Positions 29,101 through 38,100 of a DNA stretch of 64,000 nt are shown piece after piece; position 1 is the first letter of the stretch, and the number at the start of each line of letters is the position of its first letter. The position numbers were made by a program. The stretch lies in the NCBI RefSeq assembly GCF_016903815.1, contig NZ_CP069973.1; one strand, given 5' to 3'. Source of the stretch: Escherichia coli. GTDB lineage: Bacteria > Pseudomonadota > Gammaproteobacteria > Enterobacterales > Enterobacteriaceae.

Positions 29101-32100
29101 TCTACAAAGCGAAAAATCGCTAACCGACTTCTTTGCGCCATTACGCTCTGTCCCGTCGTTGCAGATTGGTCGCCTGGAAGTCATCGATGCTCGTTTGCAA
29201 GGTCCGGACTGGGCGGTGACCGACCTCGATCTCAGCTTGCGCAACATGACCTTCAGTAAAGATGACTGGCAGACACAGGAAGGCAAACTGTCGATGAATG
29301 CCAGCGAGTTCATTTATGGTTCGCTGCATTTATTTGACCCGATTATAAACGCGGAATTTTCCCCGCAGGGCGTAGCGCTGCGCCAGTTCACCAGCCGCTG
29401 GGAAGGGGGCATGGTTAGAACGTCAGGGAACTGGCTGCGTGACGGGAAAACGTTGATCCTTGATGATGCGGCAATTGCCGGGCTGGAATATACCTTGCCG
29501 AAAAACTGGCAACAGTTGTGGATGGAAACGACACCCGGCTGGTTAAACAGCCTGCAACTGAAGAGATTTAGCGCCAGCCGCAATCTGATCATTGATATCG
29601 ACCCTGACTTCCCGTGGCAGCTCACCGCGCTCGATGGTTACGGTGCCAACCTGACGCTGGTTACCGATCATAAATGGGGCGTCTGGAGTGGTTCGGCGAA
29701 TCTGAATGCCGCCGCCGCGACATTCAATCGTGTTGATGTTCGTCGCCCATCGCTGGCGCTGACCGCCAACAGCAGCACGGTGAATATCAGCGAACTGAGT
29801 GCATTTACTGAAAAAGGCATTCTGGAAGCCACCGCTAGTGTTTCACAAACGCCACAACGTCAGACCCATATCAGCCTGAATGGACGCGGTGTGCCGGTGA
29901 ATATTTTGCAACAGTGGGGATGGCCTGAATTACTGTTGACTGGCGACGGCAATATTCAGCTTACTGCCAGTGGCGATATTCAGGCCAATGTCCCGCTGAA
30001 ACCTACGGTTAGCGGGCAATTGCATGCCGTGAATGCCGCAAAGCAGCAAGTGACTCAAACCATGAATGCGGGCGTAGTTTCCAGTGGTGAAGTTACGTCG
30101 ACGGAGCCGGTGCAGTAAAAATAAGGACGCTAGCGGATATCAGCGCTAGCGTTCCCCGTTATTAGCGCAAAATTCCATACTCACTGCACAATAACCATTT
30201 CACCGGTTCATCTTCTTCTATCGCCGGAAAACGTCCTCCCGGCTCAAGAAAATAGTTATCGTGTTGGTCATCATTTACCATCGAAATTTCCCAGCCGAGA
30301 ACAAACGCTTTTTCCGCCCAGAAGCGATGATACAGACGCGGCGGCAGGCAAATGCCCTGCCCCGGCTTTAGCACCAGCGTTTCACCAGGTTTCATGGTAC
30401 GCCGCTGACCATCAACACTCACGGTAATGACTCGTTGATCATCACAGAGATTGGCTTCGTTGGCCCAGGCCAACTGCATGCATAAGTCTCCACCGCCCCG
30501 ATTGAGGATATCTTCCATTTTGTGGGTGTGAAAATGCCAGGGAGTCTGCTGATCTTGTTGGATCTGCAACATTTTCTCAGCATACGGTTTTGGATATGCC
30601 GCCGACCCCAGCGCGCCGTTGCGCATCGTTAGCAGTGTTAGTCCCGTTTGGTTGAAATCACCACGACCAAAATCGGTGATATCCCAACCGAGCTGTAAGT
30701 CGACCACTTCTTGCCAGTTATCCCGTTCCAGCTGCAGCCAGTCATCCACCGTAAAATAGGCGAACTCTGGCAAACAAACGCGGAAGGTCTGCGCAATGGC
30801 ATGTGCTTTATCAATAACATAATTAATTTGTGAACGTTTCATTGGCTTCTCCGTTGCGCATAGCAAGCCAGGCAGCGCCACGCATTCCGCTACTGTCGCC
30901 GTGCTGTGCTTTTACAATGGGAGTGGTGAATTGATCGGTGAAAACCAGTGGAGCAACTTCTGCGTTCAGAGCGGTGATAAGCAGTTCCACATTCGAAAGC
31001 CCGCCGCCGATCACAATCACGCCAGGGTCAACAACGTTAACGATGGTTGCCAGCGTGCGGGCAAGCTGTTGGCGAAAACGTGCCACCTGCTGCATGGCAC
31101 AAGCATCACCACGTTGTGCCAGGGTGACAATCGCCGCAGGAGTGAGCAAGTTACCAGTCATCTGTTGATAGCGTTCACTAAAACCGCTGCCGGAAACAAA
31201 CGACTCCACGCAGTTGTGTTTGCCGCAATAGCAACTGACTGATGGACCATCTTCCTGCTCCGTATAGCCTGGCAACGTGATATGACCGCATTCGGCAGCA
31301 TTTCCCCAGGCCCCTATAAACGGTCGTTGCTTGATGGCAATGCCACCGCCGCAGCCCGTACCAAGCGTAATACCAAATACCACGTCATAATCTTGCCCGG
31401 CACCGTCGCAAGCTTCTGATAGCGCGAAACAGTTACCATCATTGGCTATCACCACCGGTTGCCCAAGCAATTGCTGCAAATCAGCCTGTAACGCATGACC
31501 GTTAATCACCTGAATATTCGCGTTTTTAATCAGGCCAGTGAGTGGCGAGATACTGCCGGGTAAGGCGATCCCTGTCAGCATCGGTCGTTGAACGTCCCGC
31601 CTAATCTGCTCGATAAACGCCACAACGCATGAGACAAATTGTTGATATGTCGACTTTTGCGTCGGGCAGCGGTAACGGCGAATCTCCCAGCCATGCGCAT
31701 CCATGACGACGGCGGCGATTTTGGTCCCACCAATATCCAACCCCAGATAGTGCATATCTCGTTCCTTGTTGCGTAAAAGGCGGGTCACCCCGCCCTTCTG
31801 GCTTAGTACAGTGATGCTTTACCGAGCGAACCGAACAGTTTCATTTTGTGGCGAATGACTTCCCGCGCCGCGTTAATCGCATCCGGATAGATGACGTTCG
31901 GGTCCCACCAGCTCTCTTTAGCGAGAATTTCACGCACTTTCTGGAAATAGGCGTATTTCATATCGCTGGAGATATTGATTTTGCCGACGCCGAGCGTAAC
32001 TGATTCAGCAATCTCCGCGTCCGGGTTTGCCGAACCACCGTGTAGCACCAGCGGAATATCAATACGTCCGGCAATGTCGCGCAAAATGTCCATTTGCAGC

Positions 32101-35100: not shown

Positions 35101-38100
35101 TTTTGCGGGCTCGTCTCAACCAGCAATTGCGCTATGATGTCATCATCTGCAAGCGCGCCCGCGACCTGGGAAAGTAAACGGATATGAGTGGTATTTTGAT
35201 CTTCAAGACGTACCGCAAATAAAATAATACAGCGTACGCTACTGCCATCCAGTGTTTCCCAGGGAATATCCTGCCGGGTACGCCCGATAGCCAGCGTGGT
35301 ATTAATTACCGCAGAAGATTTACCATGCGGGATCGCAATATGATTTTCAAAACCAGTCGAGCCTTCCGCTTCGCGCTGCCAGACATCTTTAATAAAGGTT
35401 TCCCGACAATCGATCGCACCATCTTTTTTGAGAAGATTAGTTAATTCTTCAATCGCCTCCGCTTTATTCGTCGCTTGCATATCTAAAATAACGCGATTCG
35501 TATTCAGGATTTTTGTTATGTCCATTCGTCATACCTCATAAAATTCTGACATTAAATTTCAACGACCCGAGATGTCGCATGATGTAATTTTTCCGTAATC
35601 ACCATTTCAGTGACTCGCTTAATATCGGCATCATTAAAAAAAGCGGTAACATAAGCGACCGGCATAGTGACTGTAGGCAAATTAATGGTCGAAATAATCA
35701 GTTCGATATTGTCAGGCAAAACCTGTGATAAATTCGCTGCTGAAATAACATCAACAATCGTCCATTCAGGAAATGCTCGCAGAATACGGCTTTTCAGTAG
35801 ATGCGAAGTTCCGATTCCGGTTGAACAGACCAGTAATACACGTTTACGGGCAATTTGCCGCTCCATCGCAGCCTGAAAATGAACGGTCAGGTAACCTACT
35901 TCATCCTCGCTCACTGCATTCTCACCCCAGGTTTTAAATACCTGATTCACCACATATTGCGTCAACCGCCAGACATCCGCTAATTCTGCTTTAATATCTT
36001 CCAGCAATGGATTACGGATATGAATGCGATAATTTAGTCGGTTAATCAGCGGCTTAATATGAACCAACAAGCCATCATATAATGCGCTGTCTTCACTAAA
36101 ATCGCAGTCCACGATGTCACTGAATACCGTAATTAAACGCCAGGTAATCAGACGCGCTTCATTGCTGGCCTGCATATGTGAAATAATGCTAACATCTTTT
36201 TGTCCATCAATCGCCACACCTGATGAAATGATATATTGATAAATAAACCAGACTTCATCATCGGGCAATGTATGTGCAATTCGTTGTTCTATCTTATGAA
36301 TCATCTGACTGGCAACATTAAAGATATTTTCATCATATTGCCTGGTTTGATCTTCTTCTCTGGATAACGCATTCCCGTGCGTGTTGCGATACATCATAAT
36401 AAGGATGTGAGTAAAAATGTTAACGTAATAAGGCTCTCCCAAAGACCAACTTAATTCATTTTCCATATCCAGTAACAATGACTGGACAAATAACACCTCT
36501 TCTTCTCCAAAATAATGGACTAATGCTTTATAACTTCCGGGATCCAGACGTGAATACACGACACCTTGCGGCTCATTATGGTTAATAATGCCGTTAATCA
36601 GTAATGCCATTGCCTGTCGGACTTGCCCTTCACTACCTTCAATATGCGTACCACTTGGGCTGCGGATCAATGATAACCCCAACGGCGCAAGCCAGGACTC
36701 AATCACTCTCAGGTCATTAACAATAGAGGCTCCACTGATAAAATAGCGCTCTGACAATTTACTGATCGACGTTTCATTCGGTGTTTCACTTAATAACTGC
36801 GACGCTATTTTAACGCGCCTGGCATTATTCATTACACCATCAATCTCTTCACATTCTGCTCCCAACAAATGATCAAGATGCAGCAAATCAGTAATATTCT
36901 TCGAGTCTAACATCACACCTGCGCCAGCACGCTTCTCAACGGTTATTCGCCATTGTTCCAGCCATTGCTCAAGTAAACGTAAATCACGTTGAATGGTTTT
37001 TTCCGAAACATTTAAATAGCCGGCAATCGTAACAATAGTCGTATATTCCCTTCGTGGTAAAAGGAATCGTAATAATCTGTTTTGTCGCGAGGTAATCATT
37101 TGCATTTTTTACCCTTATCACAGATTAAGAAGCCCCATGTGGAAGAGCTTCAGTTGCCATCTCTGAGGGTAAATATAAAGCAGAATAATTTCACAACAAT
37201 ACTAAAATCTGTCCGTAGTCCGGACATGTATAAAACAAAACGGGGCGGTTAATAGATATTTTTCGGCACAGATCACATTTTCGTGATGAATAATCGTGAT
37301 CATGCTCGCAAATACGATGGAAGAAATATTTATTACCAGATGTGAGATTATTTACCGGATACGACACAAAACCATTCGTATCCGGCATTCTTCAATAGAT
37401 TACAACGTAATTGTCAGCGCATTCCCTTGAGGAGTCACCACCAGTCCCTGCTCACTTTCAGCCTGCGAACCACCTTGCAGACCATTTACTTTCACAATAT
37501 TGCGCAAGCACAGTGTCCAGTTCTTCGCCTCGCCCGCACCAGTCACAGTAATCGTGTTGCCAGTACGCGCCGCTTTCAGGGTGAAAAGAACGGAACCGTC
37601 AGCAGCGGGCACTTCACAGATGGCTTCATGCCCGTCTTGTAGATTAAAGAGCTGGAATGCCGTGCCTTCGTGCCACGCGTAATCGGGACGTTGCTCGTTG
37701 TTGCCCAGCGCCAGTAGGGTGTTATCACGCACATAAACGGGCAGACTCAGGAAGCTGTGCTGCTGTTTATGCCAGCGACTACCATCGAGTTCATCGTTGT
37801 GCCACAGGTGTGTCCAGCGACCTTCAGGCAAGTAGAACTGCACATCGCCCGCTTCAGTGAACACAGGCGCAACCATCACGTTGTCGCCTAACATGTATTG
37901 ACGGTCAAGGTAATCACAAGCCGGATCGTCCGGAAACTCCATCATCATGGCCCGCATCATCGGCGTACCCCGCGCGTTCGCACGAGCAGCTTCACGATAC
38001 AGATAAGGCATCATGCGGCATTTCAGTTGCGTGAAGAAGCGCACCACATCACAGGACTCATCATCGTAGGCCCACGGCACACGATAAGATTTGCTGCCAT

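Follow-up and report, generated by a model that had tools for sequence, protein, structure and literature searches.

The 64,000-nucleotide stretch of the Escherichia coli contig NZ_CP069973.1 (assembly GCF_016903815.1) analysed here, hereafter the window, carries the eight-gene frz operon between the core genes yicH and yicI. The frz operon carried by the avian extraintestinal pathogenic E. coli (ExPEC) strain BEN2908 is said to have been reported by Rouquet et al. in 2009 (J Bacteriol 191:4427). The locus in the window is this already published operon of avian and human ExPEC, and its presence is nothing new in itself, being already known. The operon is probably ancestral at the yicH-yicI site in the Enterobacteriaceae and would have been lost by deletion in K-12-like lineages. 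An earlier note on the same DNA had described it as inserted. This part of the note is not supported: the same site is occupied in other genera, the synonymous divergence of the operon equals that of its flanks and a deletion remnant is found in the genome HS-02. The empty site of K-12 is therefore more probably the product of a deletion, and loss in K-12-like lineages is more likely than gain. The additions made here are evidence for an old locus with synteny across genera, the remnant of a deletion, what may be a relic inside the spacer of K-12, and the smallest unit that is conserved.

Genomes were scanned for the permease subunit of the operon, EIIC, with one genome per species. In total, 225 places were found, and the cross-genus results given below come from the best 80 of these. 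Among them, the order xanP-yicH-frz-yicI-yicJ with the full operon was observed in several species of the Citrobacter freundii complex, in Phytobacter ursingii, in two Superficieibacter, in two Klebsiella and in one Kluyvera. The yicH side of the site was also seen in Kosakonia and Raoultella, and the yicI side in Mangrovibacter. When the window is compared with these genera, synonymous sites differ at a proportion of 0.53-0.83 in the frz genes and of 0.51-0.70 in the flanking genes xanP, yicH, yicI and yicJ. For Escherichia sp. MOD1-EC7003 the corresponding values are 0.10-0.26 and 0.06-0.16. Identity declines with taxonomic distance for frz and flank genes alike, and none of the sampled genera is closer to the window for frz than for core genes. 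Moreover, nonsynonymous divergence (dN) lies well under synonymous divergence in every frz gene.

Gene content and identity of the locus

Eight minus-strand genes occupy positions 30119-37399, as shown by the list of open reading frames (ORFs) and by the RefSeq annotation of an identical locus. Five of them encode a regulator, the EIIA, EIIB and EIIC proteins of a phosphotransferase system (PTS) and a sugar kinase; the others encode two aldolases and a cupin. The features of the locus are as follows.

28409-30118 (+): yicH, AsmA-family, left flanking core gene (Pfam AsmA; RefSeq annotation of the identical locus)
30127-30152 (-): hairpin just past the yicH stop, followed on the minus strand by CCTTATTTTT (terminator scan; fold)
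30162-30842 (-): cupin, D-lyxose/D-mannose isomerase-family, 226 aa (PF07385, 290 bits; NF051472; 3KMH alignment)
30823-31755 (-): ROK-family sugar kinase, 310 aa (PF00480; motifs DIGGT and CYCGKHNC)
31803-32663 (-): class II aldolase 2, 286 aa (PF01116, 305 bits; NF006042/PRK08185)
32744-33595 (-): class II aldolase 1, 283 aa (PF01116, 252 bits)
33607-34698 (-): PTS EIIC, fructose family, 363 aa, published name 'frz orf4' (TIGR01427; PMC8896058)
34723-35037 (-): PTS EIIB, fructose type, 104 aa (TIGR00829; PF02302)
35055-35525 (-): PTS EIIA, fructose/mannitol type, 156 aa (PF00359, 120 bits; TIGR00848)
35552-37105 (-): frzR, PRD-containing DNA-binding regulator, 517 aa (Pfam; holds the published frz primer sites)
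36838-36847: CATCAATCTC within frzR; this 10-mer also comes after the yicH stop in empty sites of the K-12 type and stands at the HS-02 joint
37170-37177 (-): TATATTTA, invariant across 11 genera/lineages, candidate -10 element (frzR upstream alignment)
37210-37226 (-): palindrome TGTCCGGA-N-CGGACA, both arms invariant across genera, candidate operator
37270-37280 (-): conserved box AA(A/G)TGTGATCT, also written AATGTGATCT, upstream of the palindrome, possible regulator/CRP half-site
37355-37385 (-): yicI terminator hairpin (homologous to the hairpin of the K-12 yicH-yicI spacer; fold)
37400-39718 (-): yicI, alpha-xylosidase GH31, right flanking core gene, stop codon at 37400 (NF007940, 1427 bits)

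The gene complement named in the earlier note agrees with the ORFs and the annotation, and every domain call of the eight products was confirmed with Pfam and NCBIfam. The cues to a single operon are equally real. In transcription order, the genes are separated by gaps of 26, 17, 24, 11, 80 and 47 nt, and the last two, kinase and cupin, overlap by 20 nt (30823-30842). Short gaps (11-80 nt), one overlap and one terminator-like site at the 3′ end thus give the sequence the form of an operon, and a review describes the frz genes as transcribed as one. The two hairpins that the note had placed at the junctions are both present and far more stable than shuffled sequence (30127-30152, -19 to -20 kcal/mol, z = -4.2 to -4.5; 37355-37385, z = -3.4 to -3.5). 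The left-hand hairpin, with its T-run on the minus strand, fits an intrinsic-terminator-like end of the frz operon and belongs to frz and yicH. The right-hand one is no junction. The hairpin of the K-12 spacer is homologous to it, with another loop and a paired change in the stem, and it is therefore the yicI terminator.

Several published descriptors coincide at this locus. The multiplex primers for frz, with an amplicon of 843 bp (PMC6238794), match the window with zero mismatches at 36681-36700 (-) and 35858-35877 (+); both sites lie inside frzR and span exactly 843 bp. The original description of frz comes from BEN2908, and in a 2026 paper on the genome of this strain a region GR27, 'yicH..yicI', of 7,283 bp contains the frz operon (PMC12928451). 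In a survey of chicken isolates, 'frz orf4' denotes a PTS EIIC (PMC8896058), and EIIC is the fourth gene of the operon in the window, in agreement with that order. Exact primers, amplicon length, the yicH..yicI site in BEN2908 and the nature of orf4 together uphold the identification, offered in the earlier note, as the frz locus of ExPEC and avian pathogenic E. coli. Compared with frz of BEN2908, the site, the length (~7.28 kb), the content and order of the eight genes and the primer amplicon are the same. Nothing essential differs; the window carries a minority haplotype.

Secondary sources report that frz helps cells to survive late stationary phase and restricted oxygen, and that it favours the ON state of the type 1 fimbriae switch (PMC6238794; PMC12928451; review). 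The operon serves as a diagnostic marker of avian pathogenic E. coli, and the literature also cites it as a factor in the metabolic fitness of ExPEC. A literature search for a frz substrate, for frzR or for any discussion of the yicH-yicI site returned nothing beyond such marker and fitness reports. The earlier note had named no transported sugar for frz, and none was found in this search.

The empty site and the direction of the event

The frz locus was found at a coverage of at least 80% in 1,602 of 5,426 complete E. coli genomes. In the remainder, yicH and yicI stand side by side. UTI89 and 536 carry the locus at 98.5-98.6% identity to the window. The haplotype of the window is in the minority, with 263 genomes at an identity of at least 99%, and differs from the UTI89/536 type by ~1.5% overall and by ~4.6% in the 5′ part of frzR and the promoter region. 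Haplotypes within E. coli differ by up to ~5% in this region, in which three classes can be distinguished: the window type (263 genomes), a class at ~95% (~1,171 genomes) and the type of sequence type 648 (ST648) at ~94.6% (169 genomes). This diversity within the species counts in favour of an ancestral position. In strain 98200 (L001), the closest match to the window, a copy of the insertion sequence (IS) IS1 lies between frzR and yicI, in the frz promoter region (10286-10983); the window is without this IS1. In ST648-type genomes (L087, 2260-2272), yicH is three codons shorter, with TAG for CCG, a change also present in HS-02 (L086, 5990-6267).

K-12-type genomes have a spacer of 52 bp at the site, which reads TAA-ACATCAATCTC-GCCGGGTACGACTCAGACGTACCCGGC-ATTCC… and is followed by the yicI stop codon. 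This spacer, found in a K-12 derivative, bears out two statements of the earlier note, that yicH and yicI are adjacent and convergent in K-12 and that frz is absent from it. In the E. coli strain HS-02, the whole stretch between the yicH stop and a position within frzR is lost. What is kept is a 266-bp fragment from the 5′ end of frzR, frameshifted and joined straight to the yicH stop, together with the promoter region and the terminator of yicI. Therefore, deletion does occur at the frz locus. The joint in HS-02 consists of TAAA followed by CATCAATCTC, and this 10-mer is frzR sequence (36838-36847 in the window). The K-12-type spacer has the same TAAA-CATCAATCTC directly before the yicI hairpin. 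Shuffling gave p ~0.04 that any 10-mer of the spacer occurs anywhere in the 7.3-kb insert. The K-12-type spacer is probably a deletion scar. The chromosome of HS-02 is also unusually small, at 4.50 Mb versus 5.06 Mb in ST648.

A number of observations speak against an ancestral operon lost by deletion. The YicH and YicI proteins of HS-02 are identical to those of ST648 and the remnant is 99.5% identical to ST648. Judged by these identities, HS-02 has descended recently from an ST648-like frz+ strain, and cannot be the ancestor of the old and widespread empty allele. The simple form of a two-step deletion, with HS-02 as its surviving intermediate, was rejected because flanks and remnant are nearly identical to present-day ST648. 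The HS-02 joint may instead stem from recombination with an empty allele at the 10-nt match, and the empty alleles vary at their first bases (ACAT, AAAT, AAGT). Moreover, no representative genome of E. albertii, E. fergusonii, any other named Escherichia species or Salmonella is among the best 80 of the 225 places, and several independent losses are therefore needed.

One alternative is that the K-12 spacer and frzR are identical over these 10 nt by coincidence. HS-02 would then be the product of homology-facilitated illegitimate recombination, with an incoming empty allele and a resident frz+ allele as partners, and its joint would be silent on polarity. A chance of ~0.04 is not negligible, and the recent ST648-like descent of HS-02 and the variation of empty alleles at this very spot are both in keeping with it. 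However, the match sits exactly at the HS-02 joint, and recombination of this kind would itself be rare. The cross-genus synteny is, in any case, independent of the 10-nt match. We regard coincidence as less likely than not.

The other possibility for the origin of the locus is that frz is a horizontally acquired islet, put without a scar into an empty yicH-yicI spacer in the ancestor of ExPEC-rich lineages via homologous recombination of the flanks. We consider this unlikely. It would agree with the empty site in ~70% of complete E. coli genomes, with the position of the other named Escherichia species and the Salmonella representatives outside the best 80 of 225 places, and with the G+C content of frzR, EIIA and EIIB (41-44%, versus 51-54% in the flanks). 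The substitution cluster at the 3′ end of yicI that is common to the E. coli frz+ haplotypes could likewise be the endpoint of an old recombination. However, this patch is not tied to the presence of frz, since Escherichia sp. MOD1-EC7003 is frz+ and K-12-like in it. An acquisition is also difficult to reconcile with a site that is occupied in at least five other genera at a synonymous divergence equal to that of the flanks, and no plausible donor emerged, since no sampled genus is closer for frz than for core genes. A deletion remnant exists in HS-02, and the empty spacer holds 10 nt of frzR.

The cluster itself comprises eleven substitutions in 25 bp (37568-37592), shared by all three E. coli frz+ haplotypes examined and absent in K-12-type genomes; it looks like a short imported patch. 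As a simple marker of insertion it was rejected, MOD1-EC7003 having the K-12 state. Raised divergence in the last 300 bp of yicH was likewise rejected as a feature tied to frz, being specific to strain CH425.

The absence of mobility scars reported in the earlier note (no integrase, tRNA, IS element or flanking repeat) was borne out by Pfam, tRNA, Rfam and repeat searches. No tRNA gene was found closer to the locus than tRNA-Sec at 41403, no Rfam element inside it and no direct repeats bracketing it. In the eight products, no domain of an integrase or a transposase scores above the Pfam cut-off, and there is no IS element in the locus. The G+C content is 48.5%, versus 49.2% for the whole window. 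The frz locus thus shows none of the marks by which a mobile island is recognised (integrase or transposase, attachment site, direct repeats, atypical composition). By contrast, a true integrase island in the same window, at tRNA-Sec (41513-51212), carries both an integrase and IS1. If K-12-type E. coli lost the operon by deletion, this is why its edges bear no integrase, tRNA, IS or repeat. Scarless edges are, however, expected under either gain or loss.

On balance, we lean towards frz being not an acquired islet but an ancestral catabolic operon, resident at yicH-yicI since before the split of Escherichia, Citrobacter and Klebsiella. The 52-bp spacer would then be a scar that holds 10 nt of the regulator, and the link with ExPEC would be one of retention. 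If true, frz marks lineages that have retained an old sugar pathway (the UTI89/536 type and the ST648 type carry it), and not the gain of a pathogenicity factor.

Predicted pathway and its regulation

The three PTS proteins all score above the curated cut-offs of the fructose family: EIIA with TIGR00848 (126.9 bits, cut-off 103.5), EIIB with TIGR00829 (99.4 bits, cut-off 76.85) and EIIC with TIGR01427 (311.5 bits, cut-off 157.55). The phosphorylation-site His of EIIA is present in the motif IAIPHG, and the active-site Cys of EIIB in the N-terminal context AACTAGIAHTY. Together, they make up a fructose-family PTS enzyme II.

The two aldolases match the structures of AgaY and KbaY at E = 1e-40 to 1e-50. 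Aldolase 2, the better conserved of the pair, reaches NF006042/PRK08185 with 526 bits (cut-off 405) and has every class II aldolase feature that was checked: the Asp-His pair of the active site, two further His ligands, the GGS phosphate loop, Lys/Asn and the Glu of the mobile loop. In aldolase 1, the metal and phosphate sites and all of these residues other than the loop Glu are retained, and no NCBIfam cut-off is reached. Its rate of evolution is two to three times that of aldolase 2, and it is absent in four relatives (L029, L034, L055, L075) and in Paenibacillus. Aldolase 1 may be a modified or accessory subunit, and perhaps not a normal aldolase.

The kinase belongs to the ROK family (PF00480, 250.6 bits), with the N-terminal ATP motif (DxGxT) as DIGGT and the Cys-rich zinc motif CYCGKHNC. 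The cupin matches PF07385, the D-lyxose isomerase family, with 290 bits. It is 49.5% identical, over the full length, to the solved D-lyxose isomerase of E. coli O157 (3KMH), and the HxH, E and H metal ligands are kept. By family match and alignment it is a member of the D-lyxose/D-mannose isomerase family. The solved enzyme is Z5688 (EcSI) of E. coli O157:H7 (PDB 3KMH/3MPB), with which the frz cupin shares PF07385 and the metal-binding His and Glu. However, the two are paralogues and not the same gene, the frz protein lying below the equivalog cut-off.

The gene content differs between families. The kinase and the isomerase were found in Enterobacteriaceae only, and most Citrobacter are without the kinase. 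A core without kinase or isomerase, made up of regulator, EIIABC and aldolases, is present in Pantoea, Erwinia, Pectobacterium, Brenneria, Paenibacillus and Sebaldella. In Pantoea, Pectobacterium, Paenibacillus and Sebaldella, the neighbours of the operon have nothing to do with sugar metabolism and offer no clue to the pathway. The EIIC protein of E. coli is 74-79% identical to those of Paenibacillus (L079, L081, L084) and Sebaldella (L082), and the regulators are only 40-42% identical. The high identity of EIIC to Firmicutes and Fusobacteria suggests either an old transfer of the permease-aldolase module between phyla or an unusually strong constraint on the permease.

The logic of a PTS permease followed by a class II ketose-bisphosphate aldolase is shared with GatABC/GatYZ, AgaY/KbaY and FruBKA of K-12. 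The second subunit in frz is, however, another PF01116 aldolase paralogue and not of the GatZ/KbaZ type. In place of a PfkB-type 1-phosphofructokinase, which frz lacks, it has a ROK kinase and a cupin isomerase. For the second phosphorylation, the K-12 galactitol route relies on a housekeeping kinase.

A biochemical route can be proposed from family membership only. The PTS would import and phosphorylate a fructose-like ketose, and a housekeeping kinase would add the second phosphate, like PfkA and FruK in the galactitol and fructose pathways. The aldolases would then cleave the product to triose phosphates. In a side branch, the isomerase and the ROK kinase might act on a mannose-, lyxose- or talose-type free aldose to give first the ketose and then the ketose phosphate, which would enter the same route. 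The conserved unit without a kinase and its wide presence in plant-associated Enterobacterales narrow the search for the substrate to fructose-like ketoses completed by housekeeping kinases. Taken as a whole, the account of a non-mobile chromosomal frz operon, with a proposed PTS/aldolase catabolic route and a probable ancestral position and loss in K-12-type strains, is one in which we have high confidence.

Some results sit less comfortably with such a route. No frz substrate is identified in the literature searched. Aldolase 1 is without the mobile-loop Glu, the loop reading ADAPRYDQAANAD. The best NCBIfam match of the kinase is the fructokinase PRK09557, with 316.7 bits against a cut-off of 443, so that no equivalog cut-off is reached. 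The cupin scores 272.1 bits with NF051472, the D-lyxose/D-mannose isomerase equivalog, below the cut-off of 350.

That frz is mainly a sensory and regulatory PTS which does not support growth, with phosphoryl flux via FrzR and EIIABC reporting the metabolic state and altering the type 1 fimbriae switch and stress fitness, is improbable: secondary sources do link frz to fitness when oxygen is restricted or in late stationary phase and to the ON/OFF state of the fim switch and name no growth substrate, and K-12 has several cryptic fructose-like PTS sets, but catalytic and phosphorylation motifs are retained, dN is far below synonymous divergence for every gene, and the conservation of a permease-plus-aldolase unit all the way from Enterobacterales to Paenibacillus and Sebaldella is what one typically sees with working catabolic modules.

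In FrzR, Pfam identified an HTH_11 domain, an Mga domain, two PRD and an EIIB-like domain, the last with a conserved Cys in the context LLVCSTGIGTS. No Pfam hit to the RNA-binding CAT domain was obtained, despite the RefSeq label 'BglG family antiterminator'. By its domain order, FrzR is a PRD-containing activator of the MtlR/LicR kind and not an RNA-binding antiterminator; the activators MtlR, LicR and ManR have the same succession of HTH, Mga-like, two PRD and EIIB-like domains. The relatives in Paenibacillus and Sebaldella (654-685 aa) have an extra C-terminal part that the enterobacterial FrzR (517 aa) lacks.

The region upstream of frzR was aligned across the 11 genera/lineages, and three invariant or near-invariant elements were found, at 37210-37226, 37170-37177 and 37270-37280. 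The first, the palindrome, is a candidate operator for the activator, and the second a candidate -10 element. These candidates come from conservation between genera only, a scan of the frzR upstream region with the sigma-70 consensus having found no promoter. PTS-dependent phosphorylation at the PRD and EIIB-like domains would serve as the switch of FrzR, and the regulator would probably act at the conserved palindrome just upstream of the promoter. In Citrobacter braakii (L009), the frzR leader has an extra ~130 nt just upstream of the start at 7584, which is in no other genus aligned (columns 301-430).

Other features of the window

The ~9.7-kb island at 41513-51212 lies beside tRNA-Sec (41403-41497) and is missing from the otherwise collinear strain ECamp083. 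Its cargo comprises a P4-type integrase (41797-42981), a TPR protein, a LacI-family regulator, an MFS transporter, a GH31 glycosidase (47475-49862) and IS1 (50460-50963). A search of the island with PADLOC gave no match to a defence family.

A further IS1, at 56723-57492 (transposase ORF 56973-57476), stands in place of ~5.3 kb that is present in ECamp083. The lost segment is part of a type III secretion translocon/tip-protein cluster together with most of eilA. A remaining SycD-like chaperone and a YopB/SipB-like gene (53962-56488) adjoin this IS1. At 57487-63972 (-) there is an ORF of at least 2,161 aa that is made up of ~290-nt tandem repeats, 84-88% identical among themselves; its counterpart in ECamp083 is annotated as the inverse autotransporter adhesin iatC. 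Finally, a JUMPstart RNA element is located at 6260-6298 (-), with 55 bits against a gathering score of 35.

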